DNA from: an uncultured Gemmatimonadaceae bacterium
Lineage (GTDB): Bacteria > Gemmatimonadota > Gemmatimonadetes > Gemmatimonadales > Gemmatimonadaceae
Reading direction: 5' to 3'
NCBI GenBank assembly: GCA_963740355.1
Contig: CAVUDW010000002.1
Span: 1,888,001 to 1,952,000, forward strand
Length of the DNA stretch: 64,000 nucleotides
Notes under the pieces: model-generated
What the model saw: the letters and a program-made list of their open reading frames with translations, nothing else
The model's database searches: none
Told to the model about the DNA's origin: nothing
Shown: piece after piece, positions 11,715 to 31,207 of the stretch
How the letters are laid out: each line of letters opens with the position of its first letter
Numbering within the stretch: the stretch's first letter is position 1
Position numbers and translations under genes: made by a program

Positions 11715-12245
11715 ACACGACCTATGGGTCAGGAAGGCTGGATTCGCCCGGAGGCGGGCGGGATGCGACAAGGTTGCGATTTTGCCCCGTCTTTCTCATC
11801 GGCCGTCGCCTGACGGCGTGTGGGGGTGTGCCTGACAGGCGGCGGTTCTGCGCGCGAGGTCTCGCGCGCGCCGCATCGATTGGCGGTGTGCGTCCTCGAC
11901 GATTGCGCACGAATCTCGTGGTGCGCATACACGTATCACGTACTCGACTGACGTTGTTTACCTGAGTACGTCGCACGAGCTCCGCTCGAGCGCGGCAGCA
12001 CATGCATCAGCTTGTGAATGAATATTTGCACACATCTTGCGTAAATCACTTTTGCGTGCAGGTGTGTTGTGCGCGCAGGTGTGAAGTGCGCATTCTGTCT
12101 CGCTCGTCCTGACGCCACTGCGCGACAGCGGGCAGCCGCGAAACTCACCCTGCGACGAAGCGGGCGACGGAGCAACACTCCCGCGCCGCTCGCTCACTCG
12201 GGCATGGGAGTGCAGGGATCGCCACGTCGATTCCAGGGGGGACCG

Positions 12246-14957
12246 ATGCACGAACAGGGCAAGCGCAAGACAGGAAACGGTGGTGGGGCCACTCGTGCGT
12301 CGTCGCCCCCGCGGATCAGCAGCGCCATGCTTGGGCAGAACACGCCGGAGATGGTGGCGGCCATCGAGGCGATGCCAGCGACTGACGGCGCCATCGATTC
12401 AATGTCCGAGATGCTGCGTCAATCAGGCGGTGCCGACACGATGCCCGGGATGTCATTCACCGGCGACGCGGCCACCGAGATGCTGCATGGCATGGACATG
12501 GACGGCGGCGCTGGTGGTGGCGACGACGTGATGCGGGGCGGACCGCCACGCGATGACGCCGCGGCAACCGACACAGGTGGTGAGCAGATACCGGTGCTGC
12601 TCGAATTGCGTGTCGACGCGGGCAATGCGGCGCGGAGTGCGTTCCAGATCACCGGCGCCTTTGCCAACTCGGGCTTCGCGCTCGATGATGGGTTCGAGGC
12701 AATTCCGATGGAGGCGCCGCGTGCAGAAGGAGAGAGTCTGCGTGCGGGAGCGGCAGCCGAAGCCACGCTCATCGTGCGTGGGACGATCGCCGCTGACCAG
12801 ATCGCAGCGCTCGAAGCACGGCCGGATGTGGTCAAGGTCTGGCGCGACACACGTATCGAGCCGTTCGGTGCGTCGATCGCCGAGGTCGAGACACAAACCG
12901 CATTGGTCGCACCGCTGGCCGCATTCGGTGCCTGCCCGATCGGCACCTGCGACTGTTCGCCAGGCACTCCGAAAGGCACGATGGCGGACGTCGCGAACTA
13001 CCTCGGCGTGGACCAGATCTGGAGCGCGGGCTATCGCGGAGAGGGCATCGTGGTCGGTGTCGTCGATGGCGGCATCACCGCGCAAGGCCGTCCGATCAGC
13101 GCGTCGGACACCTCGAAGCCCGACTGGCCGAACAAGCTGGTGCCGAATGTGATCGGCGGGTTCCCGGCGACGAATTGGGGCACGACGGGTGCGGGTTGGG
13201 GATGGCACGGCAACATGACGTCCACCGACGTGCTTGGGATGGCTCCCAATGCACGTGTCTACGACATTCGAATCGGTGATGCGACCATTGCAACGACCAT
13301 CTCCAACGCACTCGCCGGCTTCCAGTGGGCGATCAACCAGCATCGCACCGACGGCACACCGCAGATCCTCACCAACAGCTGGGGTATTTTCCAGGAATCG
13401 TGGGATCCGCTTTATGCGCGCGATCCGAATCATCCCTTCACGCGCAAGGTGGTCGAGGCGCTGAACGAAGGGATCATCGTGATGTTCGCCGCCGGCAACT
13501 GTGGCGGTACCTGTCCCGACGGTCGATGTGGTGCGGATAGCGGTCCCGGTCGCAGCATCTGGGGGGCGAACAGTCACCCGCGTGTGATCACGGTGGGGGC
13601 CGTGAATCGCAACGAACAATTCGTGGGGTACAGCAGCCAGGGCCCCGGTGCACTCGATGCGAACAAGCCGGACTTCTGCTCGATCACACACTTCACCGGT
13701 TTCTTCAACAGTGACAGCGGTACCTCGGCTGCGACTCCGATTGCCGCGGGCGTGGCGGCCCTGCTGAAACAGGCGAGTCCGGGGCTGACACAGGATCAGT
13801 TGAAAGCCACGCTGCGCAACACTGCGAAAGACATCGGACCGGCCGGATGGGATCAGCACTCCGGGGCGGGCATCATTCGACCGCGCATTGCGTTCGACAC
13901 TGTTGCACCCGCACCGGAGCCCTCCGGCCCCGCGGTATCCTGGGGCCCGAATCGACTCGACATCTTCGTGCTCGGCACCAATCGCGCGATGTGGCACAAG
14001 TGGTGGAACGGTGGGTCATGGGGACCGTCGCTCACCGGCTTCGAGTCACTTGGCGGGATCTGCAACACCGCCCCTGAAGTGGTGGCGTGGGGGCCGAATC
14101 GTCTCGACGCATTCGTGCTCGGCACCGATTCCGCGCTCTACCACAAGGCGTGGAATGGCTCGTCGTGGAGCCCGTCGGTGGCTGGATACGAACGCCTCGG
14201 TGGTGTCTGTCAGTCGCGGCCGAGTGTGGCGAGTTGGGGACCGAACCGCCTCGATGCATTCGTGACCGGCACGGATTCCGCGCTGTATCACAAATGGTGG
14301 AACGGCTCCGGATGGGGCCCGTCGGCAACAGGCTTCGAATACATGGGTGGTGTGTGTCTCGGAGAACCGAAGGCGGTCGCGTGGGGACCGAACCGTCTCG
14401 ATGTGTTCGTACTGGGCACCAACCGCGCGTTGTACCACAAGTGGTGGAACGGCTCGGCGTGGGGGCCATCCGTCACGGGGTACGAGTACATGGGCGGCGT
14501 CTGCAGCAGTTCTCCTGAAGTCGTGGCCTGGGGCGCAAACCGCCTCGATGTGTTCGTGCTTGGCACCAACCGCGCGTTGTATCACAAGTGGTGGAACGGC
14601 TCGGCCTGGGGGCCGTCGGTGACCGGGTATGAGTTCATGGGTGGCGTCTGCGCATCACCGCCAACGGTGGTGTCGTGGGGTGCGAACCGGCTCGATGTCT
14701 TCGTGATCGGCACCGATTCGGCGCTCTATCACAAGTGGTGGAATGGCTCGGCGTGGGGCCCGTCCGTCACCGGCTGGGAGAACATGGGCGGCGTCTGCAC
14801 CAGCCCTCCACGCGTCGTGGCGTGGGGGCAGAACCGACTCGACGTCTTCGTCACGGGTACTGATTCGCAAGTCTACCACAAGTGGTGGAACGGATCCGCG
14901 TGGGGACCGTCGCTCACCGGCTGGGAAGCACAGGGAGGAATCGTCACCGGATTCTGA
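12246..14957 (+). CDS. S8 subtilisin-like serine protease with C-terminal 7x49-aa PLL-like lectin beta-propeller
   Basis: Triad VVDGG / WHGNM / SGTSAATP, oxyanion AAGN; seven WGxNRLDxFVxGTxxxxxHKxWNG repeats; no signal peptide. Confidence 0.92.
13928..14954 (+). repeat. Coding tandem repeat, 147-bp period x7 (propeller blades)
   Basis: CACAAGTGGTGGAACGG-like motif recurring every 147 nt. Confidence 0.9.
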
Positions 14958-14986
14958 TCACGACGCGGTGAACCAGAGGCAAGTCA

Positions 14987-15026
14987 ACGCGGAGCGGCGT
15001 CGGGTGAGTCCGACGCCGCTTCGTGT
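14987..15026. terminator. Hairpin between convergent genes, probable terminator
   Basis: GCGGAGCGGCGTCGG-GTGAGT-CCGACGCCGCTTCGT. Confidence 0.55.
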
Positions 15027-15083
15027 GCGTCCGCCCCACACCCTTTGAACCCCGGCCGTCGCCGCGACGCTGGGCGTGACAGT

Positions 15084-16325
15084 TCAGGCGGAGACGGTGG
15101 CGGGCTGACAGTCGAGCAGATGCCCGTGATGAAAGCCAAGTCGCGGATCGGCATTCTTCGGCATCGGGATGTACTCCTGGATGTCCGGCATCTTCACCCG
15201 CAGGCGAATCGTGTTCGACGGGTAGTCGTAGATCGTGATGTGATTCAGGCCGCGATTGGCGGTGAAGAGCAGCGACTGATCGGCACTCAGCTTGCAGGCG
15301 TGCACCGAGTCCATCATGGTGAATCGACTCACGCGCATCGCGCCAAGCAGGTGCTCGGTCTGTGTGAACAGGCCGCCGCGCGCCAGCGTGTCGTAGAGCT
15401 GCGTCTTCGCCTGGCGCCGATTGGCGAACTGCTCACGAAGGCCAGGCTTCTCGTCGATGATGCGGAAGGTGGCGAAGTCGTCGAGCTGGATGAAGACGAT
15501 CGTCTGGCTCGCGCCATTGCAGAAGATCAACTCCGTGTCGGAGATCGTGAGGTCGCTGTTGATGTGCGCTGGGATGTCGCGGCCGGCGCTCCAGTGGCGC
15601 ACGATCTCTCCAGTCGCGGCATCCACTTCGAACGCGTATTCTCGCAGGTACGAGATCGCCCACTGGTGATAGTCCACGCGGTCCATCGGGTGCACACGAA
15701 ACGAAACGCCGTAGAAGAGGTCCTCGGTGCGATGTGGCACCGTGTGCCAGCAGGTGGCCGGGAGCTTCACGACTCGGATCTCGCCGGATCTGGTGTCCCA
15801 GATCCCCATCTCACGGGCCTCGCCGTGGCGACCCTTGGCAGGGTTGTCCATTGCGCCGAACACGATGTAGCGGCCTGACTTCGTCTGCTGCAGACCGTGT
15901 ACGATGCCCATGCCATGCTGCGCGAGTTTCTCCGGCTTCGAGAGCGACTGCGCGTCGAAGAGGTAGAGATGATCGCCGACGGAAGTGACGAAGCGGCGCT
16001 CGTCGAGCCAGACCGCGTGGGTGCTCCCGCGAAGCGAACTGTCTGGGATCTCGAAGCGGAGCGTCGAGATGCGATCGAGCTCTGCGCCACTGCGTGTATC
16101 GTAGAGCAGCAGGTGCTGGCCAGCGTTGCCCAGAAATCCGATCGAACCGGTTGGGTCTACGGTGGTGGCGTGACCTCCGGCGATGCCGTCGTGGAAGCGG
16201 ATGTTGTAGGCGTAGCTGTTGTCCGCCGGATCGAACAGAAAGATGCAGAGCCCGGCACGACCCTCGAGGCCGTTGATGCCATTGCCATCGAGTGCGATGT
16301 GGAACGCGTAGGGGTACCGCTTCAT
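15084..16325 (-). CDS. Uncharacterised cytoplasmic beta-propeller with recurring His residues
   Basis: Blade-like motifs GHATTVDP, THAVWLD, VHGLQQT, WHTVPH, AHINSDL, VHACKLSAD, FHHGHL; xxDxxSG turns. Confidence 0.75.
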   Translation of the reverse strand: MKRYPYAFHIALDGNGINGLEGRAGLCIFLFDPADNSYAYNIRFHDGIAGGHATTVDPTGSIGFLGNAGQHLLLYDTRSGAELDRISTLRFEIPDSSLRGSTHAVWLDERRFVTSVGDHLYLFDAQSLSKPEKLAQHGMGIVHGLQQTKSGRYIVFGAMDNPAKGRHGEAREMGIWDTRSGEIRVVKLPATCWHTVPHRTEDLFYGVSFRVHPMDRVDYHQWAISYLREYAFEVDAATGEIVRHWSAGRDIPAHINSDLTISDTELIFCNGASQTIVFIQLDDFATFRIIDEKPGLREQFANRRQAKTQLYDTLARGGLFTQTEHLLGAMRVSRFTMMDSVHACKLSADQSLLFTANRGLNHITIYDYPSNTIRLRVKMPDIQEYIPMPKNADPRLGFHHGHLLDCQPATVSA

Positions 16326-16453: not shown

Positions 16454-16798
16454 ATGCAGAACGACTTCTCTGATCTCGAACAGCGTGCGCTCGAACTTCC
16501 CGTCGGCACGGCCACACCGCTGACACGCGACGAGGTGGATCGTCTGCTGCGTGATCCCGCCTACCGCTCGAGCCTCGGCACACCCGCACACGCCACCCAC
16601 TTTCGCCGGCCCCTCGCCGATGGTCGCGGCATGCACCTGGTGATCGATGCCGAGGGGAACGCGGGTCTGCACTGGGATCGCTTCGACCCACAAGCGAGTC
16701 CGACTGGACTCATGATGCACCTGCTGACCGATGCGCCGGAGCAGGCGCTGTCGCTGTTGGCCGCTGGATCAGCGGTGCTGCGCCGGCTCGGTGGCTGA
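16454..16798 (+). CDS. Small hypothetical protein (114 aa)
   Basis: Good coding bias; conserved-looking GMHLVI..LHWDRFDP...HLLTDAP core; 30-nt 3' overlap with the convergent gene. Confidence 0.7.
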   Translation: MQNDFSDLEQRALELPVGTATPLTRDEVDRLLRDPAYRSSLGTPAHATHFRRPLADGRGMHLVIDAEGNAGLHWDRFDPQASPTGLMMHLLTDAPEQALSLLAAGSAVLRRLGG

Positions 16799-17356
16799 CG
16801 CGCGCCGCGATCCTGTCGAGCCGTTGGTGACGAAGACTTCGACCGCCGCACCTAGATCCTGCAGGGTCTTCGCCAGCAACGTCGCTGCTGCATCCTCGAG
16901 CCCTCCCTTCAGCCGTCCCTGACCGAGTGGGCCCAGGGCGCCCGGACCGAGCGACGCCGAGATCTCGAACGACATGCGACTGCCACGTCCGCCCATCGCT
17001 GATTCGAGGCGCGTACTGCCGGAACCGGAGAGGCTGCCTGCCAGCAATCGCGACTCGACGGTCCAATGCGACTCGAGTTTGCCTTCGTGCCAGCTGGCGC
17101 GTTCGACCCACGTGAGCGCGTCACCATCCACGAAGCGTCCCATCGCCGAGGGCAAGGCTGCGCTCGCTCGCCACTCGTGCACGGTGCTGACCACACCATC
17201 GGCATCACCGGCATGTTCGAGTCGCGTGACCGACTCGATCCCCTTCATCCACGATGCCACCGATGGCAGGTCGTCTCGCAACGCAGACCAGACGCGCTCG
17301 GGGGGCACTCGCAGCATCACCATTCGCCGAAGGTTGACCTTCTGGTGTTCGTTCAT
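16769..17356 (-). CDS. SRPBCC/START-fold (polyketide cyclase-like) protein
   Basis: LRVPPERVWSALRDDLPSVASWMKGIESV N-terminus and C-terminal capping helix; ATGA overlap with the upstream gene. Confidence 0.75.
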   Translation of the reverse strand: MNEHQKVNLRRMVMLRVPPERVWSALRDDLPSVASWMKGIESVTRLEHAGDADGVVSTVHEWRASAALPSAMGRFVDGDALTWVERASWHEGKLESHWTVESRLLAGSLSGSGSTRLESAMGGRGSRMSFEISASLGPGALGPLGQGRLKGGLEDAAATLLAKTLQDLGAAVEVFVTNGSTGSRRASATEPAQHR

Positions 17357-18411
17357 GCACGCTCCGAGTAGGTGTGGAGTTCAGAGAACGGCGCCGAGGC
17401 AGGCACCTGAAGCCAGGCCCGAACGTCGGGTCGGATGTGATCGGTGCGGAGGAGCCAGCTGATTGCGGTTTGCAGCGCAGCCTGCGTCCCGGTCGATCGG
17501 TACCCGATTGCACGAGCGGCGCTGTCGTCGTACCAGTACCAACGTCCCATCATCCGCACTTCGTCTCGCGTCAGCGCGGGAGGCAGCCCGGACGTGCGCG
17601 AAAACCACTCGGCCCAGGCTGCAGTGAGGAAGGCGCCTGTATGTGTCGCCGTCAGCAAGGGGCCCGTCGTACCGCAGAGCGCGGAGATCTGGGAGTGCAG
17701 GTCGCGCCACGACAGGTTTTCAGCGCCGAGGATGTACGAGCGGCCCGGCGTGCCCTTCTCAGCGACGAGCAGATGGCCGCGTGCGATGTCGGTTGCCGCG
17801 ACCACGTTGCAACCACCGGCAAAGGTCGTGCGGAACGGATCGTTGAGATACTTCACGATGATCGCATTGCTTTCCGAGAGCCCGTAATCCCACGCACCCA
17901 TCGTCAGTGTCGGGCAGACGGCGACGAGCTCGATGCCGAGCGAGGCTGCCGTCGAAAACGCCACCGCCGACTGCCTGAACTTCGAGACGGCGTACGCTGA
18001 TGCGTCCTCCGCCGTGAATGATGCGTCCTCGTTCCGTGGCTCGGCTGACGCTGACGACCCGAAGATCACCGATGACGAGGTCAGCACCACACGCTTCACG
18101 CCAGCTCCAGCGGCGGCGGTGATCATGTTTCGCGTGCCATCGATCGCCACCTGCTCGAGCTCGGAAGCGTTGGCGTTCCCGTACGAGAACCGTGCGGCGC
18201 AGTGAAAGACGCAGTCGACACCTGCCGCCGCTGAACGCAACGAGGCTGGGTCGAGTACATCGCCTTCAGACAACTCGATCGGCAGGCCGCTCAGCGCGCG
18301 TCGTGGCGGGCCGCGGCGGACGAGGGCCCGCACGTCCCATCGTTGCGCGAGCAGTTCGCGAACGAGGTTGGCTCCGACGATGCCGGAGGCCCCCGTGACG
18401 AGCGCCTTCAT
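17353..18411 (-). CDS. NAD-dependent epimerase/dehydratase (extended SDR, dihydroflavonol-reductase/HpnA-like)
   Basis: MKALVTGASGIVG, VFHCAA, LTSS, YAVSK. Confidence 0.9.
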   Translation of the reverse strand: MKALVTGASGIVGANLVRELLAQRWDVRALVRRGPPRRALSGLPIELSEGDVLDPASLRSAAAGVDCVFHCAARFSYGNANASELEQVAIDGTRNMITAAAGAGVKRVVLTSSSVIFGSSASAEPRNEDASFTAEDASAYAVSKFRQSAVAFSTAASLGIELVAVCPTLTMGAWDYGLSESNAIIVKYLNDPFRTTFAGGCNVVAATDIARGHLLVAEKGTPGRSYILGAENLSWRDLHSQISALCGTTGPLLTATHTGAFLTAAWAEWFSRTSGLPPALTRDEVRMMGRWYWYDDSAARAIGYRSTGTQAALQTAISWLLRTDHIRPDVRAWLQVPASAPFSELHTYSERA

Positions 18412-20627
18412 GCCGAAGCCTCGCGCGCTTGTGGCGTGAAAGGCGTGGCCCCGATCGCAGCGAGGTCGCGACCAACGGCCTTGCCCAGCTCGGCGAGAAA
18501 GGTCATGGGTGTGAGGTCGGTCACGGCGCCGATCGGCGAACGCGCTCCGGACACGACACTCGGAGAGCCAAGGTTGCCAGCGAAGTGGGCGAAGCCCAGA
18601 TCATCGATGGCCAGCGGTTGCACTGACCCGGCGGCAGCGCTCTCGTCCGGCGTCGCCCATCCGAAGATCCGCGACACGAGCGCAATCGCGCCGGTGAGCA
18701 GGGCGCGAAGCTCCGAACCTTCCTCGATCGCACCGACGAGGACGGGCGGCTTGCCGATACGAAAGCTGCGCCCATCGTAGGCGGCGCGGAGATTCGCCAT
18801 CGTGCCATCGAAGAAGCGACCGTATGCGTCCGCCACCAGTTCGCCGTGTACGCCAGGCCAGCGTTCGATGCGCGCCGCGGCAAGCATGGTTGGCAGCTTG
18901 AATCGCTGTCGTGCGAAGACCTGTACCTCGACCTGGCCGGCGCCAGTTCGCCGAAAAGCCACGCACCCGTCATCGGAGTCAGCGGATCCATTCACACTTT
19001 GCATCGTGCGCCAATCGATCCGCTGCTCATCGCTCGAGTAGTGCATCACCTCGAGCTTCTCGACATCGATACTGTCGCCACCAAAGACGGCCGTCCAGTT
19101 CGGCTGCGGCAGGTAGAGATTCCGCTCGGCCTGTCGTGTCGGACGTCCTTCGGCATCGCGGGTGATCACACGCCAGGAGCCGCCGAGGTAGTCGTTCATG
19201 TTGCGAATCGACGCCGAGATGTCCACTCGCTCGACGAAGCTGTCGTAGTCGAGCGGGAGTAGGCGTTGCGCGGCGAAGTGGATGTGCCCGGCCACGGTGC
19301 GGAATCGGAAGCCGCGTGAGTCCTGCGGCGCTCCATCCAGCACCCGAGATTGTGCCGCCACGATCCGGCGCGTTTCGTCGAAATCATTTGGCGAGAAGGT
19401 GCGCAGGTCGAGGTTGATCGGCGCCAGCGATTGTCGGACGTCGCCCTTCGTGACGTTGGTGGAGAAGGTCTCGCGTGAACCAGCGAGAAAGCCGAGCAGG
19501 CTCTCGAGGAGGGTCTCGATCCAGTCGCGCACTCGTGCATCGCTGATCTTGTCGAGACGGCCAAGCACGGTTGCCGAGACCTGATCCACGATCACATCGC
19601 GAAAAGGGAAATGCTCGCGATCGGTCACTTGCAGCACGGCGGTCGCAAAGGCGTCCAGTTCAGGCCAGCGGCTACGACTGCGAATCGCGTCGATTCGGGT
19701 GGCCGTCGGATTGGTCCAGTCACGCCATGGCGATGCGTCGCCGTCAAGCACCCATGCCGAGGGCAGACCTACCTGATCGAGCGCACGACCGTTGATGGGT
19801 GAGGAGTGTGGATCACCACTCATCTTCAACGCGCCGATCCAGTCGGCGAGCAGGGCATTGGGCGATGCAATGATCGTGTCGGTCTGGATCGGGTTCGAGA
19901 TTCGGGAGCCCGCGCGTCCGTGACTGCCGACCACCGCATCGATCAGCGCAAAGTCCGGTGGACAGGCGCGCAGCAGTTGCAGCGCGGCGTCTTCCGGCGA
20001 CCAGTGCGTGGCGTCGCATTCGGTGGAGACGAGACCCAGCAGGTTGGCGACGGCGAGCGCGTAACTCCATGCGTCGTCGGTCTTCGCTTTCGCAAAAGAG
20101 ATTCGGATATCCGCTGATGCCCATACGCCGTTGACGCGAAGTGCTCCGGAGTCATCGTAGCGATCGAGCGCCACTGGCTGCGGGTCGTCGTCCACCCACG
20201 CAAAGTCGTATGGCTGCCCTTCCGGTGCCTCGAAGTGATAGCCGATGAGATCGGGGACTGAGAGGCCTTCGCGGTTGCACAACCAGCGGTCCGGCTTGTT
20301 GCGTCCATCGCAGAGCGTGACGTTCGCATAACCGGCAGTTCGCAGCTTGACGACCAGCAACTCGACCAGCTGCGGATCAGTACCCGTGTGCGAGTCGAGG
20401 GCGAACACATCGAGATCAGGCTTGATGACGATCGCGAGGTCACTCTTTCGCCGACGTCGAGACGCCCGTCGCTTGCTGAGCATGCTCCAGAAACCGGCAG
20501 CCTCGAGCGCACGGTCGAGCAACGATTCCGGTGTTGCACCGTGCTCGTGTGCAACCGCGACGGCGACCGGTGCCGTCGTGCTTGCTGGAGTCGCGATGTT
20601 CGAAATCGAAGTGCGCGTGCCTGTCAT
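18408..20627 (-). CDS. DUF362-like domain fused to a C-terminal START-like domain
   Basis: IVIKPD..TDPQLVELLV..KAKT..PPDFALIDAV..TIIAS.NALLADW (DUF362-like). The C-terminal IDWRT...DDGCVAF...VEVQV + long helix segment fits a START fold. Confidence 0.7.
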   Translation of the reverse strand: MTGTRTSISNIATPASTTAPVAVAVAHEHGATPESLLDRALEAAGFWSMLSKRRASRRRRKSDLAIVIKPDLDVFALDSHTGTDPQLVELLVVKLRTAGYANVTLCDGRNKPDRWLCNREGLSVPDLIGYHFEAPEGQPYDFAWVDDDPQPVALDRYDDSGALRVNGVWASADIRISFAKAKTDDAWSYALAVANLLGLVSTECDATHWSPEDAALQLLRACPPDFALIDAVVGSHGRAGSRISNPIQTDTIIASPNALLADWIGALKMSGDPHSSPINGRALDQVGLPSAWVLDGDASPWRDWTNPTATRIDAIRSRSRWPELDAFATAVLQVTDREHFPFRDVIVDQVSATVLGRLDKISDARVRDWIETLLESLLGFLAGSRETFSTNVTKGDVRQSLAPINLDLRTFSPNDFDETRRIVAAQSRVLDGAPQDSRGFRFRTVAGHIHFAAQRLLPLDYDSFVERVDISASIRNMNDYLGGSWRVITRDAEGRPTRQAERNLYLPQPNWTAVFGGDSIDVEKLEVMHYSSDEQRIDWRTMQSVNGSADSDDGCVAFRRTGAGQVEVQVFARQRFKLPTMLAAARIERWPGVHGELVADAYGRFFDGTMANLRAAYDGRSFRIGKPPVLVGAIEEGSELRALLTGAIALVSRIFGWATPDESAAAGSVQPLAIDDLGFAHFAGNLGSPSVVSGARSPIGAVTDLTPMTFLAELGKAVGRDLAAIGATPFTPQAREASA

Positions 20628-20857
20628 CTGCGAGAGGGCGAGACGGTGGCGTACGTCTATCGATGTGAATGCTCGTGCAATTGCACTGCAAGAACGAAGT
20701 TGCAAGGTCGTGTTCGCTGATACTTCACACGACTCTTCAATACAGAAGACGTCTTGACGCAGCGAGTGTGCTCATGCAACCTGTGTCGCAATGACAACGT
20801 AGGTTTGATCGCGCGCGTCCACAACGTGCTTCGCTGCAGAAGCAGGAGTGAACGGGA

Positions 20858-21424
20858 ATGAGCGTCAGCGTACCGCAACCGTTCCACACCACGGTGCACG
20901 CCGCGCAGCCGTTTCGCGCGAAAGTCGAGGGCGTTCCGACGTCGTTCACGATTGGAATTTCCGATCTGCCGTCGCTGGATGTGTCGGTGGAGAAGATCCC
21001 GGTGCTGCACCTGAGCGTTGACGCGATCCCCGCGGTGCATCTCAGTGTGGACGCCATTCCACCGTTGCACATCAACATCGACACGCTGCCGCCGATCAAG
21101 GTGGAGCTCGCTCCGATCGAACTCAAGCTCAGCGAAATACCATCGACGCGTGTGCATATCCCGGCAGACTTTGCGGTCAGCCTGTCGCTGCTTGGAATGG
21201 ACTTCGGCTCGGTGCGGCTGTGTGGCGAGGCGCAAGTCATCACCGAGCCGTACAAGCCGAACCCGTGTGAGATCTGCAGTCGGGCACCCGCTGATGCGGT
21301 GATCGTGAAGCCCACCGAGCCGATCGTGCCCAGGCCGAACGATCCTGTCGTGGTGAAGCCGCGCGATCCGGTGGTGGGTCAGCCGGTCACGCCCGTGACG
21401 CCGACGCCACGTCCACCGAATTGA
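20858..21424 (+). CDS. Hypothetical protein with 10-aa hydrophobic repeats, a CxxC and a Pro-rich tail
   Basis: AGGAG RBS; ISDLPSLDVS/VEKIPVLHLS/VDAIPAVHLS/VDAIPPLHIN/IDTLPPIKVE; PCEIC. Confidence 0.8.
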   Translation: MSVSVPQPFHTTVHAAQPFRAKVEGVPTSFTIGISDLPSLDVSVEKIPVLHLSVDAIPAVHLSVDAIPPLHINIDTLPPIKVELAPIELKLSEIPSTRVHIPADFAVSLSLLGMDFGSVRLCGEAQVITEPYKPNPCEICSRAPADAVIVKPTEPIVPRPNDPVVVKPRDPVVGQPVTPVTPTPRPPN

Positions 21425-21427
21425 TGT

Positions 21428-22186
21428 ATGGCGCAGGCGACAAAGACCGAGGGTGAACCGACCGCCGTCCGCTTCCGCGGCATTCCGTCCGGGCTGACAG
21501 GTGTCATCCCCGAGCTGACGGAATCGGCGTCGGAGATTGCGCTCACGATTCGTGGCGTGCGTGAACCGAAGGATTCCATCGACTTCATGGTTCAGTCCGA
21601 CATCGATCCGCGCGTGTTGCGACTCTTCCTGCCGGCGGACGTGGTGCCTGGCAAATACAGCGGTGTCCTGTCGCTCGACGGCAACACTCGACCGGCGCAG
21701 GTGGAAGTTGAGGCTGCACCCCATCTGCGCGCCTTCCCGGAACAGCTGCGACTCACTGCGCGACCCGGTGAGACAGTCAGGCAGCAGCTCACCGTGCTGA
21801 ACGATGGCAACGTGACTGTCACGCTTCGCAAGGTGCAGGCATTCGGAGTGATCCTTGCTGGAGGCATCGAACGGGCGTTGCGTCGTGCCTATGTGACCAG
21901 GCTGGCCGAGACCCAGCGGCGCGTGGATGTGATCGCCGACTCGATCGCCGCGGCACACGGCGGACTGGTGAAGATGTCGCTCGACGGTGGGGCCGTGTCG
22001 CTGCGACCCGGTGAGTTGCGCGAAATCGACGTCACGATCCGGCTTCCCAACGAGCTATCGCCGGGAGCGGAGTATGGTGGCAACTGGGAAGTCGCCGGGC
22101 TCGTCTATCCCGTCATCATCCAGGTATCGGGCACGAAGACCGAGCCGAGTGACGACGAGCATGACGATCCGCCCGTCGTCAACTGA
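21428..22186 (+). CDS. Hypothetical protein with probable Ig-like beta-sandwich domains
   Basis: PGKYSGVL, PGETVRQQLTVLNDGNVTV, LRPGELREIDVTIRLP..PGAEYGG; starts 3 nt after the upstream stop. Confidence 0.8.
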   Translation: MAQATKTEGEPTAVRFRGIPSGLTGVIPELTESASEIALTIRGVREPKDSIDFMVQSDIDPRVLRLFLPADVVPGKYSGVLSLDGNTRPAQVEVEAAPHLRAFPEQLRLTARPGETVRQQLTVLNDGNVTVTLRKVQAFGVILAGGIERALRRAYVTRLAETQRRVDVIADSIAAAHGGLVKMSLDGGAVSLRPGELREIDVTIRLPNELSPGAEYGGNWEVAGLVYPVIIQVSGTKTEPSDDEHDDPPVVN

Positions 22187-22265
22187 GCAGTCGCTGTGGT
22201 ACGACGGCGAGACGAACCACCGCTCGCATGTGACGTGGGAACGCCAGACCTCTGGAGACTCTACG

Positions 22266-22910
22266 ATGGCTTCGACGACGAAAGCCCGGCCGATGGGCGA
22301 TGTGCCCGGCGCATTCATGGGACTGCTGGCCGCGCAGATGAAGCTCGGGCAGCAGTTGTATGAAGACTTCACCGGAATGAAGGCACCGGACATGACATCG
22401 TCGATGTCGCAGTCGTGGAACGCCTGGCAGGAGGCGCTCATGAATCCTCCCGTGGCGACGCCGTCCTGCAGCGTTCCGCCGCCGTGCTGGATGCCGAAGA
22501 AACTCGGCGACATCACCAGCTACGCCTGCGGCTGCAGCACCGTCAAGGTGAAGATCGAAGTCACGAACTGCGACCGTGTGGCGCGAACCTTCAGCGTGCG
22601 GAGCGATGGCGTGGAGGGGGTGAAGATCGCACCCGACTCCATCAGCCTCAACCCGATGCGGCGGGGGACGATCGAGGTCTCGTTCAAGCTGCCGGAGGAC
22701 ATCGACGAAGGCACCGAGTATGAAACGCTGCTCTGGATCGAGGGCTGCAACCAGCACGTCCTGCGGTGGACCATCGTCGCCGGACACGCGGGGATGGATT
22801 CCACGCACGAAGTGAAGGTCAGCGATTGCCCGGACTACCGGCATCACTGGTACGACCACTTCTACTGCAATCGACCCTGCTCGCACACCCGGGTAACGCG
22901 CAATGGCTGA
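22266..22910 (+). CDS. Hypothetical Cys/His-rich protein (amphipathic helix + Ig-like domain)
   Basis: GGAG RBS; CSVPPPCWMP; C-terminal DCPDYRHHWYDHFYCNRPC; 9 Cys. Confidence 0.85.
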   Translation: MASTTKARPMGDVPGAFMGLLAAQMKLGQQLYEDFTGMKAPDMTSSMSQSWNAWQEALMNPPVATPSCSVPPPCWMPKKLGDITSYACGCSTVKVKIEVTNCDRVARTFSVRSDGVEGVKIAPDSISLNPMRRGTIEVSFKLPEDIDEGTEYETLLWIEGCNQHVLRWTIVAGHAGMDSTHEVKVSDCPDYRHHWYDHFYCNRPCSHTRVTRNG

Positions 22911-23445
22911 TCGGACACAGATGGAAGACGTTATGCGCCGCGCGTTCGACGCCAACCTGCGTTACTGGGAAACAGTCGGGCGTGCGACCACCGACTACGT
23001 GCAGACAGTCTCGAAGTTGTGGGCCGACGCGCCGATCAGTTGGAAGCCGGCCACCATGACCTGGAACCCGGCCACCTGGGCGGGGCAGCGCACCGCGCAC
23101 GCTGATCACCGTCACGACGCTGCCGTGGCGCCAGCGCTGGTGCTCGAAGGGGTGGCTGGCGCGCAGGTTCGGACGGTGCTGATGATCAGCAATGACCTCA
23201 CCTGTGATGCCGACGCGACGGTCGAGATCTCGACGCTGCGCGGTCCCGATGGCCGCTTCGCGTCGGTCGAGGTCCGCGCCATGCCCGAGTCGTTGACGCT
23301 CGTCGCTGGTGCGCGTGCACCCGTCACGCTGGTGGCCGACATCACCGACGCCTTGCATGTGGACACCGACTATCACGGAGAAGTGACGGTGCCCGGACTG
23401 TCGACGAAAGGCGTGCCGATTGTGGTGCGGCGACGGGCGAAGTAG
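22903..23445 (+). CDS. Hypothetical protein (amphipathic helix + Ig-like domain)
   Basis: 8-nt overlap with the previous gene; helix RRAFDANLRYWETVGRATTDYVQTVSKLW; PESLTLVAG...YHGEVTVPG. Confidence 0.8.
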   Translation: MADRTQMEDVMRRAFDANLRYWETVGRATTDYVQTVSKLWADAPISWKPATMTWNPATWAGQRTAHADHRHDAAVAPALVLEGVAGAQVRTVLMISNDLTCDADATVEISTLRGPDGRFASVEVRAMPESLTLVAGARAPVTLVADITDALHVDTDYHGEVTVPGLSTKGVPIVVRRRAK

Positions 23446-23528: not shown

Positions 23529-23702
23529 TCAGTCAGGCTCGCGCTGCGCTCTCGCAATGTTGTTCAGCTGGCGCTGCAGCCGATCCAGTCGGTCCTCGAT
23601 CGGCTCGAGTGCGCCGCGGACTATCCAGCGGATGCCGTAGCCGAGCGCCGCGATGACGCAGCCATAGAAGATCAGGTAGGACAGAAATATGCCAAGGAAC
23701 AC
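23529..23702 (-). CDS. Small single-pass membrane protein with coiled-coil tail
   Basis: GGAG RBS before GTG 23702; FLGIFLSYLIFYGCVIAALGYGI then IEDRLDRLQRQL. Confidence 0.55.
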   Translation of the reverse strand: MFLGIFLSYLIFYGCVIAALGYGIRWIVRGALEPIEDRLDRLQRQLNNIARAQREPD

Positions 23703-23796
23703 GTCGGCTCCAGCGAGGTGATAGTAGCGGCGTGATCTGACATTACACCTGTTTCGACAATAAAGACATCGCCGCGCCATCCCGGACTGGTCGAAC

Positions 23797-23840
23797 AAAA
23801 ACACCGGGGCCCGTCCCGATTGGCAGGACGGACCCCGGTG
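23797..23840 (-). terminator. Rho-independent terminator of the SnoaL-like gene
   Basis: CACCGGGG...CCCCGGTG stem with an A5 run on the left (U-tract on the minus strand). Confidence 0.6.
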
Positions 23841-23888
23841 CGCTTTCATAACCCATTGATGCGTCTGGATTTACCGCTCGGGGCAGCG

Positions 23889-24278
23889 TCAGCTCCCGGC
23901 GTTATAGAAAAACTCCTCATGCACGATCTTGCCGTCGCGCACCGTGTAGAGCGCCGCCTCTTCCATCGTGAATCGCTTCTGGGTCGGCTTGAACGTGATG
24001 TCGTATTTCATGTTCACGATGAATCGGTCACCATGCGGCCACGGGCCCGAAAACTGGGCATCGTGAATTTCATGGTTGTCCATCCACCACTGGCCCTTGG
24101 CCATGCAGGCCTCCATGCCGGTGGCCGTCGCCGGGCCGCTGCCGTCGGGGCTGCCAGCCTCGACGCTCACGATATCCGTGGAATACAAGGTCCGGATGGC
24201 TTCGGAGTTCTTGCCCTGCCGGCAGAGGTCGACCAGCGTCGTGCCAATCTCCATCGTACTCATCTGTGTCGTGCTCAT
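23889..24278 (-). CDS. SnoaL-like/NTF2-family protein
   Basis: LVDLCRQGK..AI..LY...VSVEA...GPWPHGDRF...MEEAALYTVRDGKIVHEEFFY; real start ATG 24278. Confidence 0.88.
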   Translation of the reverse strand: MSTTQMSTMEIGTTLVDLCRQGKNSEAIRTLYSTDIVSVEAGSPDGSGPATATGMEACMAKGQWWMDNHEIHDAQFSGPWPHGDRFIVNMKYDITFKPTQKRFTMEEAALYTVRDGKIVHEEFFYNAGS

Positions 24279-24401
24279 CCGGAGCTCCTCGCCTTCAAGT
24301 GTCGTTGCATTCGGAATCGGGGCAGGACGATAGAGTCGCGCGCGACCGCCCGCAACGCCCCAGCATCTCGCGCCAGCGTGGGCCGCACGTAGCTTCGGCG
24401 C

Positions 24402-27458: not shown

Positions 27459-29621
27459 CTACCGGGCAGTCTGCCCGCGGATGCCAGCGCGCAAACCCAC
27501 GGCCACCTGCCGCTGGAACGCCGCGGTCCAACCCGTCGGCCGCTGATCGAACAGGTTCACCACGCCAACCGAGAGCTCCATCGCACGCCGCACACCGATT
27601 CGCAGCTGACCATCGACCGAGACGAAACCGTCCTGCGTGATGTTCCCGCGCGGCGCCGAGCTGGTGTAGCGTGTGGAGATATCACCTGCGATGCCGCCGA
27701 GCGGCTGCCACTGCTGTGACAGCGCCAGGCGCGCCGTGTGCCGCGCCCGTCCATCGAGCGTCGCACCAGTGAGGAGGTTGCGGGCTCGCAGGTAGTCGTA
27801 GCCGAGCACCACCTCCATCGTCGGCATCGTGAAACGCGCGCTGCTTTCAATTCCCTCTGTTCTTGCGCGCTCGACATTCACGTTCTGGTAGACGATCAGG
27901 CCTGCCGCATTGGTACCCGTGGCCTGTGTGGCGATCAGGTTGGAGAGGGCGTTGCGATAACCTTCCAGTTCGAGCGACAGACCTGCTGCCGGCGCCCACG
28001 CGCCACCGAGCGTGGTGCTCCACGACTTTTCTGGCTGCAGCGTCGGGTTGCCGACGATCTGGTATCCCGCGGCACCGTTGATGAAGGTGTAGCGGAGCTC
28101 CTTGAAGGACGGGGCGCGGAAGCCTCTCGCGAAGTTCGTGTGTACGCGCCAGGTCGGCGAGAGCTGCCACACGGCACCGATCGTGGGAGAAACAGCGTCA
28201 CCCCACAGGGTGCTCGACGAACTCCGCGCGCCTGCGGTAAGCAAAACCGGACCCAAGGTCCAGGCGTCGCGGGCGAAGAACTCCAGCACTCGATCATTGA
28301 CGCTGTCGCCGTCGATCTTGGTCGGTGCGACGATACCGCGAGCGCTGAACTGCACACCGGCGTCGAAGGAGTGCTGGCCAACAGCCTTCGAATAGGAGAG
28401 GAGGCCGCGGGCCATGCGTTCCTGCTGCTCCAGCGAATCAGCCGACCCCGCGATTGGCAGGTCGCCCAGTGCCTCACGGAATTGGTAGGCGTATCGCTGC
28501 CCGAACACCCGAGCACGGAACAGCCCACCACCCACCTTCACCTGCGACTCCACGAAGCCTTGCAGCGAGTGATTGTCGATGAAGCCGTTGAATCCGGCGC
28601 CCACCGGCCAGCGCTGCCGCTGTTGTGAGTACGTGAGATCGGTGCGGAGTGAAACGCGCTCGGAGACGCGCACGCGAGTGTCGCCGCGGAAATCGTAGAC
28701 GCGGTCGAGCGTCGATCCTTCGGCATTGATCGCCGTCACGCGGTCCGTCTGACGCCAACCGCCATTGAGTCGAAATCCAATCGGACCAACGGTGTTGCTC
28801 AACTCCGCCGAGCTCTCACGACGACCGAGTTCTCCGGTGCGTGCATTCACTTCGGCAGTGAGGCCAGGCGTCGGTGCGGCGGTGACGAGATTGATCACGC
28901 CGCCCAGCGCCTCACTGCCGAACTCCACGCTGCCCGGTCCCTTCACGACCTCGATACGCTCGGCGGCCAGCGTCGAGAGGCGGCCGATGTCGCGATTCTC
29001 TGTCATCGCGCCCGCCATCGGCTCACCGTCCACCAGCACGAGCACGCGTGATTGATCGAGGCCACGGATGGCAATCGATGTCTGGGCTGGCGGCGATCCA
29101 ATTTCCTGCAGGCCGGGAATGCGGCGCAACAACTGGTTGGCGGAAACCGCCCCGGCCGCGACGATGTCCGCCTTCGTCAGAACGGTCACACTGGCGGGTG
29201 ACTCACCAGCGCGGATCTCGCGCTGACCAACGGTCGTCACGACGCGATCGAGCATCGTCGGCAGCGGCAGCATGGCGATCGACAGCTGCGGTGCCTCGAC
29301 CAGCACGCGTCGCTCGCGAAATCCAAGCGCACGGATGCGCAGGCTGTCACCAACGGTGGCACGGATGCGGAACGCCCCGGCTTCGTCGGTGCGCGCGCGG
29401 GCTCCGCTCGACACGACCGTAACTTCGGCCGACACCACAATCATCCCCTGCTCGCCGCGGCCGGTGACCGTCCCGCGCACCAGCTGGCTCGCTTGCGCAG
29501 CGAGTGGCGCGGTGAAGGCTGCGCCACTCGTCAATGCCAGCGTGATCAGCAGACACACCGCGAGGGCACGCACGCGCTCCCCCACGCACGCACCCTCACG
29601 ATATGTCGTACTCCCGTTCAT
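27459..29621 (-). CDS. TonB-dependent receptor (HmuR/FepA-like)
   Basis: Plug IRGL..RVLVLVDG..ERIEVVKG..G..ALGGVINLVT; GFRAPS, GNPTLQPE; ATGA overlap with hmuY. Confidence 0.92.
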   Translation of the reverse strand: MNGSTTYREGACVGERVRALAVCLLITLALTSGAAFTAPLAAQASQLVRGTVTGRGEQGMIVVSAEVTVVSSGARARTDEAGAFRIRATVGDSLRIRALGFRERRVLVEAPQLSIAMLPLPTMLDRVVTTVGQREIRAGESPASVTVLTKADIVAAGAVSANQLLRRIPGLQEIGSPPAQTSIAIRGLDQSRVLVLVDGEPMAGAMTENRDIGRLSTLAAERIEVVKGPGSVEFGSEALGGVINLVTAAPTPGLTAEVNARTGELGRRESSAELSNTVGPIGFRLNGGWRQTDRVTAINAEGSTLDRVYDFRGDTRVRVSERVSLRTDLTYSQQRQRWPVGAGFNGFIDNHSLQGFVESQVKVGGGLFRARVFGQRYAYQFREALGDLPIAGSADSLEQQERMARGLLSYSKAVGQHSFDAGVQFSARGIVAPTKIDGDSVNDRVLEFFARDAWTLGPVLLTAGARSSSSTLWGDAVSPTIGAVWQLSPTWRVHTNFARGFRAPSFKELRYTFINGAAGYQIVGNPTLQPEKSWSTTLGGAWAPAAGLSLELEGYRNALSNLIATQATGTNAAGLIVYQNVNVERARTEGIESSARFTMPTMEVVLGYDYLRARNLLTGATLDGRARHTARLALSQQWQPLGGIAGDISTRYTSSAPRGNITQDGFVSVDGQLRIGVRRAMELSVGVVNLFDQRPTGWTAAFQRQVAVGLRAGIRGQTAR

Positions 29622-30673
29622 CGGATGCGCGCGTACCGGATGGTCGGGAAGCCGCCCGCGCCTGACGTGCCGTAGTATCCGATCACCTGAAGCTTGTAGG
29701 TCTTCGCCCCGTTGCGGATCAGGTAGGTGTTGAACGTCGGGGAGAGGCGCTGGTCATTGTTGAGGTCATAGCGGAACGGACCGCTGATGTCCTCGATCGA
29801 GTTCGGGATCGGGCCGGTGAGCACCGAGAGGTATGGCGCGTACTCTGGCGCGTCGCTGGCCAGCGTGGTGCCGGCAAATCCTGGAGTCGAGGCGCCTGGG
29901 TACGTCCCTGCGTTGCACGCCGAGTTGACGCTGATCTCGTAGATCGCTGGCGACAACAGCAAGTCCCAATTGCATCCAGACGCGGTGACGGCAGTGCCGG
30001 TCGCGAGGTCGATGTTGAGTGGCGTGGAACCGGTCGTGATCGTGAACGACTGTGCGGCGCCAAGCGTGCTGCCGGTCTGGATTCGGGACTCGAAGGTGAC
30101 CGAACCGAGCGCGCGACCGCTGAAGGTGATGCCCGTCACACGGACCAGCGCGAAGCCACCATTGCCGCGACGCACCTTCCAGTAGGCCGCCGCATTGGCC
30201 GTTGGTGCAGCACCACCGACGATGAGGAAGGCGTTCGCGTTCAGGATCAGGCGGTCCGCCTTGAAGAGCGAGTCCGCCGGGATCTGCGCATCGCGGATCG
30301 AGTCGAATGCCGCCAGCGTGTTCTGGTTGGTGAATGCGAGCACCTGCGCGGCGGTCGCGTTCTTGTTGTTGCCGAGCGAGTAGCCCGTGCCGCCAGCCGT
30401 GCCCGATACGCCACCGTTCACGCGCACTTCATAGCGACGGAGGGCGATGTCCCATGTCGAGGTCTTCGGGACCAGTGCCTGCGCGTCGAAGCTGAAGTAG
30501 ACGAGTGTGTCAGTCGAGCTGGCGTTGAGCGGGCCGGAGACCACGATCTCGTTCAGTGCCGCGCCCGTGACTGGATTGACTGTTGGGTCGGTGGTCGATT
30601 CGCTGCACGCTGCCAGCAGCAGCGCACTCGCGGCCGCAAGCAGCGGCGTCCGGAACATCAGTGTCGAAGACAT
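29618..30673 (-). CDS. hmuY: HmuY-family lipoprotein (two HmuY-like halves)
   Basis: LLAAC lipobox; VYFSF..WDIALRR...NGG.SG; C-terminal YKLQVIGYY..G..GFPTIRY. Confidence 0.82.
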   Translation of the reverse strand: MSSTLMFRTPLLAAASALLLAACSESTTDPTVNPVTGAALNEIVVSGPLNASSTDTLVYFSFDAQALVPKTSTWDIALRRYEVRVNGGVSGTAGGTGYSLGNNKNATAAQVLAFTNQNTLAAFDSIRDAQIPADSLFKADRLILNANAFLIVGGAAPTANAAAYWKVRRGNGGFALVRVTGITFSGRALGSVTFESRIQTGSTLGAAQSFTITTGSTPLNIDLATGTAVTASGCNWDLLLSPAIYEISVNSACNAGTYPGASTPGFAGTTLASDAPEYAPYLSVLTGPIPNSIEDISGPFRYDLNNDQRLSPTFNTYLIRNGAKTYKLQVIGYYGTSGAGGFPTIRYARIR

Positions 30674-31207
30674 CAATACCTGCGTCAGTGTCGTGATTGG
30701 CAACGCGATCAATGGCGTTGCGAGTGTGCACGAACTCTGCTCGGACCAGGTGTGCGGCGAAAGTACGGAAGACTACGGACAACACCCGGCGGAAACCCGC
30801 CGTGCCGTGCCCGCGTTGTGCGCACCGTTCGGGCCGTGCGACCGACTGCGCCACGCGGCTGTGATTCGCGACCGCCGGGAGTACATCTTTCATCGCGGCG
30901 TGATCGCCGCGCCGGCAGCGGCATTGGATTCACACCATCTGTTCACACATCGCGATTCCCGGGGGCGGCATGAAGGGAGGAAAGGCGGGCAGGGAGGCGA
31001 AGCGCCCGACGACGCGCGCGGATGCGCAACCGCCGCACCCCAAGGGGCCGTCGCGCGGTGCACCGAAGCGCGACTGGGGTCCGCAGGAGTCCGCCGACGA
31101 GCTGCCGAAGGCTGTGCCGCCGAAGCGTATCAGGCCGGGTCGATAAGGCGCCGGCAAGTCGCGCCTGCTGGCTTGTGCGGACCAGACGCCCCCGGTTCGT
31201 TTCCGGG

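Follow-up and report, generated by a model that had tools for sequence, protein, structure and literature searches.

A conserved four-gene module with Ig-type sandwich proteins in an uncultured Gemmatimonadaceae bacterium, a candidate lipid-handling assembly

We describe four adjacent genes, here called g1 to g4, located at positions 20858 to 23445 of a 64,000-nucleotide stretch of the genome of an uncultured Gemmatimonadaceae bacterium (GCA_963740355.1, contig CAVUDW010000002.1; the whole analysed stretch is referred to as the window). The four genes constitute an ancient, horizontally mobile module and probably encode parts of one protein assembly. Sequence comparison shows that g3 and g4 are paralogues of each other and of the C-terminal half of g2, all being beta-sandwiches of the MSP/PapD/ASH immunoglobulin (Ig)-like type. 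g1 and g3, both presumably cytoplasmic, carry conserved Cys/His clusters that most likely bind metal. The neighbouring genes lead us to favour, tentatively, a soluble hetero-oligomeric scaffold or carrier that would handle isoprenoid or other lipids. A literature search on the motif HHWYDHFYC, on polyprenyl synthetase and geranylgeranyl reductase genes and on MSP domain/isoprenoid gene clusters, with subscription journals outside its scope, found no description of the module, which on this basis appears undescribed. We see in it a strong candidate for a novel type of system.

The original prediction, made from the sequence alone, described an operon of four genes for unknown proteins, and this stands: the genes are real, co-directional and tightly packed, and none reaches a family cut-off in Pfam or NCBIfam. 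The GC content at third codon positions is 0.75–0.81, like that of surrounding genes and as expected for coding sequence in a genome of 65% GC, and each gene has many homologues. There is one copy of the module in its own 5.4-Mb genome. At this locus 3 nt separate g1 from g2 and 79 nt separate g2 from g3, with an 8-nt overlap between g3 and g4. The open reading frame (ORF) of g3 is open from 21987, and its start was placed at the ATG at 22266, which is not within g2, because every homologue begins at the residues encoded there (MAS.T..RP.GD); a GGAG is present upstream of this ATG. Searches of g1–g4 against Pfam and NCBIfam gave nothing at curated cut-offs, with weak Ig-type hints only, and PADLOC (anti-phage defence) and PHROGs (phage families) gave no matches at E<=0.1. 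A crude hydropathy check indicated no signal peptide or transmembrane segment in any of the four proteins (maximum Kyte-Doolittle 19-mer 0.81–1.38). The intergenic region upstream of g1 presumably holds promoters in both directions; no sigma-70-type promoter consensus was found in it.

Conservation and distribution of the module

A word search gave 165 hits for g3, tblastn confirmed 170 g3-encoding stretches in species-representative genomes, and a profile search of 1.84 billion representatives returned 109 clusters at E<=1e-30. The best 80 of the 170 stretches, together with the window, formed a set of 81 loci. blastp with the window proteins over these loci detected g1 in 76, g2 in 78, g3 in 81 and g4 in 72, and an orthologue of g1 adjoins g2 in 76 of the 81. 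Across about ten phyla, 60/81 loci have exactly the order g1-g2-g3-g4 with all genes on one strand, so the conservation of gene order that had been proposed as a check was found; the patterns that do not match are due to contig ends or over-long ORF calls. According to record titles the phyla include Gemmatimonadota, Acidobacteriota, Actinomycetota, Chloroflexota, Dormibacterota, Fidelibacterota and Eisenbacteria, as well as alpha-, beta-, gamma- and ‘delta’-Proteobacteria, among them cultured Ruegeria and Roseobacter. The named RefSeq and UniProt records retrieved are all ‘hypothetical’ or ‘uncharacterized’, except for a Roseobacter g2 homologue called ‘COG1470 family protein’ in RefSeq.

Median gaps across loci are 3, -4 and -4 nt at the g1/g2, g2/g3 and g3/g4 junctions, values that depend on start codons chosen by a heuristic in the other genomes. 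The genes overlap at the g2/g3 junction in 59/77 loci and at g3/g4 in 50/71, which suggests translational coupling and therefore a fixed stoichiometry. No fused forms longer than 375 aa were present among 87 candidates. Two apparent fusions (P0294 and P0262) were rejected as over-long metagenomic g3 records, probably frameshifted calls, in which the motifs lie within Arg/Ala/Pro-rich stretches resembling wrong-frame translation.

Distribution among close relatives is patchy. Counting the genome of the window itself, g2 was found in 7 and g3 in 5 of 41 relatives' genomes, and g3 occurs in 4 of the 19 other genomes of the same genus. One relative (G013) carries all four genes in order at 57–64% identity and with full synteny, and two others (G005 and G002) carry all four in order at 25–39% identity. 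In a fourth (G004), g1 to g3 are matched in order and are followed by a g4-sized ORF without a significant match; the next gene after this four-gene run (L015, 5944–6579) encodes a protein that combines a CHRD domain and a PEP-CTERM sorting signal. Separately, two loci (L017, G019:C297, 6569–10243; and L018) encode a distant g2-like Ig protein (27–28% identity; fn3_5, 28.7 bits) in another operon of unknowns, beside an 1838-aa KS-AT-KR-ACP-methyltransferase polyketide synthase; neither locus has g1, g3 or g4.

Ig-type sandwiches, repeats and Cys/His motifs

The AlphaFold2 model of g3 has a mean predicted local distance difference test score (pLDDT) of 83.6, with helices at residues 13–36 and 43–59 and a sandwich at 78–202. 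The sandwich (residues ~73–176) superposes on the MSP domain of VAP-A (VIA Z 10.1, root-mean-square deviation 2.9 over 99 residues) and on PapD-type chaperones (VIA Z 8–9), and ASH domains (HYDIN, CEP192) also superpose. In total, 37 chains matched at VIA Z>=8. Foldseek matches had E values of 1e-6 to 1e-4, and sequence identities of these folds to g3 are 7–19%. When profiles of g1–g4 were compared with PDB sequences, nothing was significant except HYDIN for g3 (E 1.4e-4), and matches in the ESM Atlas were limited to Ig-type families and to clusters labelled ‘hypothetical’. By superposition on solved members, g3 belongs to the PapD-like/MSP/ASH Ig-fold superfamily, and g4 and the C-terminal domain of g2 would share this fold by homology. 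The structural matches are all to non-enzymatic Ig folds, and the matches to unrelated enzymes that would have told against a scaffold were not among them.

The common fold says nothing about function. MSP, PapD and ASH proteins have no counterpart to the Cys/His motifs, the N-terminal helices or the four-gene context of the module. Because they lack a signal peptide, g1–g4 do not constitute a periplasmic chaperone, and they lie outside the PapD family proper: a hydrophobic N-terminus is missing, usher and pilin families are absent among the neighbours scanned, and PapD_N is matched by only 2/35 members of the g4 family (E 0.013). MSP and PapD folds bind extended peptides or donor strands, and this suggests, by analogy, a possible binding mode for the repeats of g1 described below.

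Alignment of g3 with g4 by hhalign gave a probability of 92.7% (E 4e-7, 144 columns), which together with the g3 model bears out the predicted common architecture of N-terminal helix, linker and sandwich. The C-terminal sandwich of g2 aligned with g4 at a probability of 91.7%, leaving ~45 residues (about 135–180) as an insertion consistent with the helical hairpin that had been proposed within a g2 sandwich; g2 and g3 aligned weakly (21.7%). Residues N125, G127 and N128 of g2 are invariant, and g2 has no conserved Cys or His.

Both N-terminal helices had been predicted to be amphipathic. This holds for g4, where the helix (RRAFDANLRYWETVGR) is strongly amphipathic with a hydrophobic moment of 0.68, and is not borne out for g3, whose helix lies outside the top-moment windows of the protein (the best, at 0.41, is elsewhere). 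The same prediction called the helices phasin-like, a label without sequence support: none of 35 g4 family members matched a phasin family at E<=0.1, the g3 and g4 of the window had no such match in Pfam either, and the sole hit, Phasin_2 (PF09361) to a g4-like paralogue from Ruegeria, scored 17 bits, below the cut-off of 24.9. K/R-rich tails occur in 40/71 g4 orthologues, where they are rich in Lys/Ala/Pro, and in 8/77 g2 orthologues, and one tail matched the histone-H1-like family HC2 (E 9e-6).

The helices and tails bear on the stronger reading of the original prediction, a coat around a discrete hydrophobic inclusion (for instance a body of isoprenoids or neutral lipid), with helices on the lipid surface and basic tails that, in many species, would tether the body to the nucleoid or to other bodies. 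Phasins and lipid-droplet proteins with basic tails are known (PhaF, PhaM, TadA/HBHA-like), and the module resembles them in the amphipathic N-terminal helix of g4, in the tails and in its lipid-related gene context; the g4-like paralogue, of the same design and with its sub-threshold Phasin_2 score, is found in 26 loci. Phasins are all-helical, and are not normally made of four strictly ordered subunits with conserved Cys/His sites, whereas the module has a beta-sandwich body, four obligatory subunits and no family match. Neither a polyhydroxyalkanoate nor a triacylglycerol synthase was found among the Pfam-scanned representatives of conserved neighbour clusters, the proteins of the window lack the tails, and we know of no inclusion in these taxa. 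A true inclusion coat is distinctly unlikely. A lipid-associated assembly that bears amphipathic helices and basic tails remains a viable idea.

The hydrophobic decapeptide repeats noted earlier in g1 were recovered as about six units of [IL]Pxhxhxh[DE]x at residues ~37–96; in the DNA, a 30-nt unit is repeated twice. Their number varies from about 2 to 6 between orthologues. Modelled alone, g1 is predicted to be mostly disordered: mean pLDDT is 60.8, the repeats score <50, and the hairpin at residues 98–128 is the only confident part. Mean column identity of g1 is 28% overall, and the C-terminal motif is nearly invariant. In 35/35 aligned orthologues H100, C122, C137, C140, E124, Q126, E130 and E138 are unchanged, within the block R.H.PA.F...LCGEAQvItEPY.PNPCE.C, and some orthologues end in ...CExCD.

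Two motifs characterize g3. The first is C68-x2-P-x-P-C74-W-x-P, and the second D187...H193-H194-W-Y-D-H198-F-Y-C201-x-R-x-C205 (D-C-P-D-x2-H-H-W-Y-D-H-F-Y-C-x-R-x-C), to which C161 may be added; AlphaFold2 confidence in the motif region is middling (pLDDT about 65). An initial count of HHWYDHFYC in 80/80 loci was circular, as these loci had been retrieved with both g3 motifs as patterns, and conservation was therefore re-measured on 86 full-length cluster representatives from an all-against-all hidden Markov model search. Among these, W195, H198 and N101 are kept in 85, F199 and P77 in 84, D197 in 81, C161 in 80, C68 and C205 in 79, W75 in 78, C74 in 74, H194 in 73, H193 in 72 and C201 in 71; C102 and C188 are kept in 37 and 35. 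The exact 9-mer HHWYDHFYC is present in 55/97 near-full-length hits. Both motifs also occur in three homologues (32–34% identity, and close to one another) that came from an independent search with the complete g3 of the window. Mean column identity is 39–44% for g3, which is better conserved than g2 and g4 (31%).

These clusters contradict the earlier statement that none of the proteins shows catalytic motifs, and we argue from them that g1 and g3 are more than an inert scaffold. One explanation is a metalloenzyme or redox module, in which g1 and g3 would bind an Fe-S cluster or other redox metal through Cys/His/Glu, either for catalysis on a polyprenyl or other lipid or to pass electrons to a geranylgeranyl reductase (GGR), IspH or the DUF362 protein, with g2 and g4 structural. 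The eight invariant residues of g1 and the near-invariant Cys/His/Trp of g3 speak for it, as do the better conservation of g3 and of the g1 motif relative to g2 and g4, and the presence of neighbours that depend on an electron donor, namely GGR family enzymes and, in 7 loci, LytB/IspH. Against this, no known cofactor-binding motif or family was matched, g3 adopts an Ig-type sandwich fold of non-enzymatic kind, fewer than half of the representatives retain C102 or C188, and the motif region of g3 is modelled with middling confidence. We regard a redox role as possible and rather doubtful.

Gene neighbourhoods and other features of the window

Accessory genes were grouped by clustering all ORFs of the 81 loci, and cluster representatives only were scanned for families. 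Three sets were distinguished. The window belongs to type A (13/81 loci), which comprises a DUF362 protein, an HpnA-like short-chain dehydrogenase/reductase (SDR), an SRPBCC protein and a 413-aa propeller-like protein (Table 1). This set is divergent from g1 in Gemmatimonadaceae, and lies downstream and rearranged in Woeseiaceae, Halioglobus and a betaproteobacterium. The first protein belongs to DUF362 (PF04015; 53.1 bits, cut-off 24), and its gene is linked to g1–g4 in 12/81 loci, the window included, in two arrangements. DUF362, a domain of unknown function, shares its Pfam clan with the N-terminal domain of LarA (PMC11770544). The SDR scored 237.6 bits against the HpnA model TIGR03466, below the cut-off of 367.65, and is thus related to HpnA and not a member by this test; it co-occurs with the module in 11/81 loci by blastp and 12/81 by clustering. 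The SRPBCC protein, which co-occurs in 11/81 loci, matched DUF2505 (29.6 bits, cut-off 26.9) and fell just short of Polyketide_cyc2 (27.2 bits, cut-off 27.4). The lactonase/beta-propeller-like signal of the 413-aa protein was not significant (E 0.2).

Table 1. Coordinates of the module, its linked genes and other features of the window
Feature	Position	Strand	Length	Description
g1	20858–21424	+	188 aa	Decapeptide repeats, C-terminal hairpin with Cys3-His motif, variable Pro-rich tail
g2	21428–22186	+	252 aa	Two predicted Ig-like sandwiches
g3	22266–22910	+	214 aa	N-terminal helices, MSP/PapD/ASH-like sandwich, Cys/His motifs
g4	22903–23445	+	180 aa	Paralogue of g3 without Cys/His motifs: helix, linker, sandwich
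Intergenic region	20706–20857		152 bp	Divergent, DUF362 gene to g1
DUF362-domain protein	18408–20705	-	765 aa as called	Domain at residues 92–291, rest without family
Extended SDR	17353–18411	-	352 aa	HpnA-like/3-beta-HSD-like (HSD, hydroxysteroid dehydrogenase); Pfam Epimerase, E 1e-28
SRPBCC/START-like protein	16769–17356	-	195 aa	Putative lipid-binding fold
u413	15084–16325	-	413 aa	No family; cluster in 12/81 loci
Terminator-like hairpin	23801–23841	-		Strong; 18-bp stem, 13 GC pairs, then T-run; directly follows the SnoaL-like gene and falls within the 5' end of the ORF below
ORF	23529–23849	-	106 aa	No family match; may not be a real gene as called
SnoaL-like gene	23889–24320	-		
Flavodoxin-like protein	10383–11771	-	462 aa	Two flavodoxin-like/FMN-reductase domains
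Subtilase	12069–14957	+	962 aa	Five DUF346 repeats at the C-terminus
TonB-dependent receptor	27459–30712	-		Adjoins HmuY-like protein; putative haem-uptake pair

Type B (33 loci) consists of a class I S-adenosylmethionine (SAM) methyltransferase, a polyprenyl diphosphate synthase, the g4-like paralogue, three more unknowns and often LytB/IspH; in Ruegeria it forms, with the module, a single 10-gene run of overlapping genes (L092, 8735–15706). The type-B methyltransferase has an N-terminal helix extension of ~80–100 residues, and the g4-like paralogue consists of a helix, a sandwich and a Lys/Ala-rich tail. The unannotated type-B genes, at 13035–15706 of the Ruegeria locus L092 and with matching genes in 26–29 loci, are four: they encode this paralogue and three proteins of 192 aa (helical), 332 aa (with a YHDHNWGRW motif) and 182 aa. 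Possible resemblances of the 182-aa protein to SCP2 (no Pfam match) and of the 332-aa protein to CrtC/AttH (only DUF2804, at E 0.22) were not relied on.

Type C (29 loci) combines a polyprenyl synthase with a GGR family flavoenzyme; a representative GGR (L087, 2578–4068) scored 203.7 bits against TIGR02032 (cut-off 158.8) and is a member of that family, which is absent at the locus of the window. Two small ORFs after the GGR gene (‘u96’ and ‘c25’) translate like wrong frames and were dropped. Overall, the polyprenyl synthase is found in 56/81 loci, the GGR family in 29, the SAM methyltransferase in 32 and LytB/IspH in 7, and neighbours include UbiE-like SAM methyltransferases and FAD_binding_3-type enzymes. 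Type A never occurs with B or C in one locus, and B and C occur together once (L032); a type-A gene is found together with a polyprenyl synthase at L094. In 6/81 loci there is no accessory set, four of these being short contigs.

Action on or with hydrophobic isoprenoid-type molecules is proposed from this neighbourhood, and two rival accounts were considered. The assembly, or factor, might be unrelated to lipids, its lipid-related neighbours reflecting shared regulation or co-transfer only. The patchy distribution among relatives would agree with this, as would the differences between accessory sets and their absence from two full-length loci. On the other side, three different sets are all lipid-themed, the linkage survives rearrangement across phyla, and no defence or phage family was matched, which makes a lipid-unrelated module quite improbable. 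Alternatively, g1 and/or g3 could themselves be substrates of lipidation, with the adjacent synthase-like enzyme prenylating Trp or Cys and the methyltransferase finishing the modification. The synthase homologue ComQ prenylates ComX in this manner, a divergent polyprenyl synthase with low scores to all named subfamilies (81–152 bits, with cut-offs of 275–600) stands immediately beside the module in those 56 loci, and both the invariant W75, W195 and near-C-terminal Cys of g3 and the ...CExCD ends of some g1 proteins would offer acceptors. The synthases nevertheless keep the usual DDxxD motifs of chain-elongating enzymes, and loci of the window type have no such synthase; lipidation is the least probable of the accounts considered, and we give it very little weight.

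The rest of the window contains genes unrelated to the module, including an amidohydrolase and an aminotransferase in addition to the subtilase and the TonB-dependent receptor of Table 1.

A candidate lipid-handling assembly

Gene order, probable translational coupling and co-occurrence point to one complex, and we propose that g1–g4 are subunits of a single soluble cytoplasmic hetero-oligomer that cooperates with enzymes acting on isoprenoids or other lipids. The complex could serve as a scaffold or carrier, holding a hydrophobic product or bringing enzymes to it. g2, g3 and g4 would supply sandwich modules of the MSP/PapD-like fold, whose usual ligands are extended peptides or strands, and the disordered repeats of g1, with their alternating hydrophobic pattern, may be the strands bound by the sandwiches, by analogy with MSP-FFAT and PapD donor-strand interactions. 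The N-terminal helices of g3 and g4 might pack into a bundle or rest on a lipid surface; comparable helices are found on the g4-like paralogue and the methyltransferase of other genomes. In both g1 and g3 the Cys/His cluster would hold a structural metal, most simply zinc. Candidate client enzymes in this genome are the DUF362 protein, the HpnA-like SDR, the SRPBCC protein and the propeller-like protein, and elsewhere a dedicated polyprenyl diphosphate synthase with either a GGR family enzyme or the methyltransferase set. The lipid/isoprenoid neighbourhood and the basic g4 tails fit a lipid-associated assembly.

Several observations weigh against this proposal. The genome of the window has no dedicated polyprenyl synthase or GGR beside the module, and its matches elsewhere are housekeeping-level only (about 30% identity), so that for this locus the isoprenoid link is indirect. 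The g4 and g2 proteins of the window lack basic tails, and L053 and L054 are full-length loci without recognised accessory genes. The 80 loci were picked by the two g3 motif patterns and include related genomes that are not independent. Finally, the Cys, His and acidic motif residues of g1 and g3 are very highly conserved, as one would sooner expect at a cofactor or active site than in a plain scaffold. On balance we rank the lipid-handling scaffold or carrier first, the metallo- or redox enzyme second and the inclusion coat third.

Known systems offer parallels in concept. In the soluble Ubi metabolon of E. coli, the non-enzymatic proteins UbiJ and UbiK solubilise a polyprenyl lipid and assemble methyltransferase and flavin enzymes around it, and the UbiE-like methyltransferases and FAD_binding_3-type enzymes near the module are reminiscent of this. 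The module differs in having no SCP2 or UbiK match and no aromatic prenyltransferase in its clusters, and its flavoenzyme is of GGR type, not UbiH type. Family 2 encapsulins with polyprenyl transferase cargo resemble our proposal in the notion that a protein assembly sequesters isoprenoid synthesis, and their cargo model NF041169 was the best or second-best for the linked synthases (81.5 and 145.3 bits). These scores are far under the cut-off of 450, the module folds are Ig-type and not HK97, and g1–g4 match no encapsulin model and are thus not members of that family. A bolder form of the proposal, which we consider unlikely, is a bacterial protein particle of a kind not recognised before, a metal-stabilised lattice or shell of MSP-like sandwiches arranged on a thread of g1 repeats, which would sequester isoprenoid or lipid synthesis or store its product in the cytoplasm. 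If true, the particle would stand beside encapsulins, microcompartments or phasin-coated granules as their isoprenoid equivalent, spread horizontally over about ten phyla.

Complete 10-gene operons are present in cultured, non-pathogenic marine strains of Ruegeria and Roseobacter (L092 and L080), which makes the question directly testable. The module points to unstudied bacterial cell biology of isoprenoids and other lipids, and its study might show by what means the cytoplasm copes with strongly hydrophobic polyprenyl products, or might uncover a new site for a metallo-cofactor on an Ig fold.

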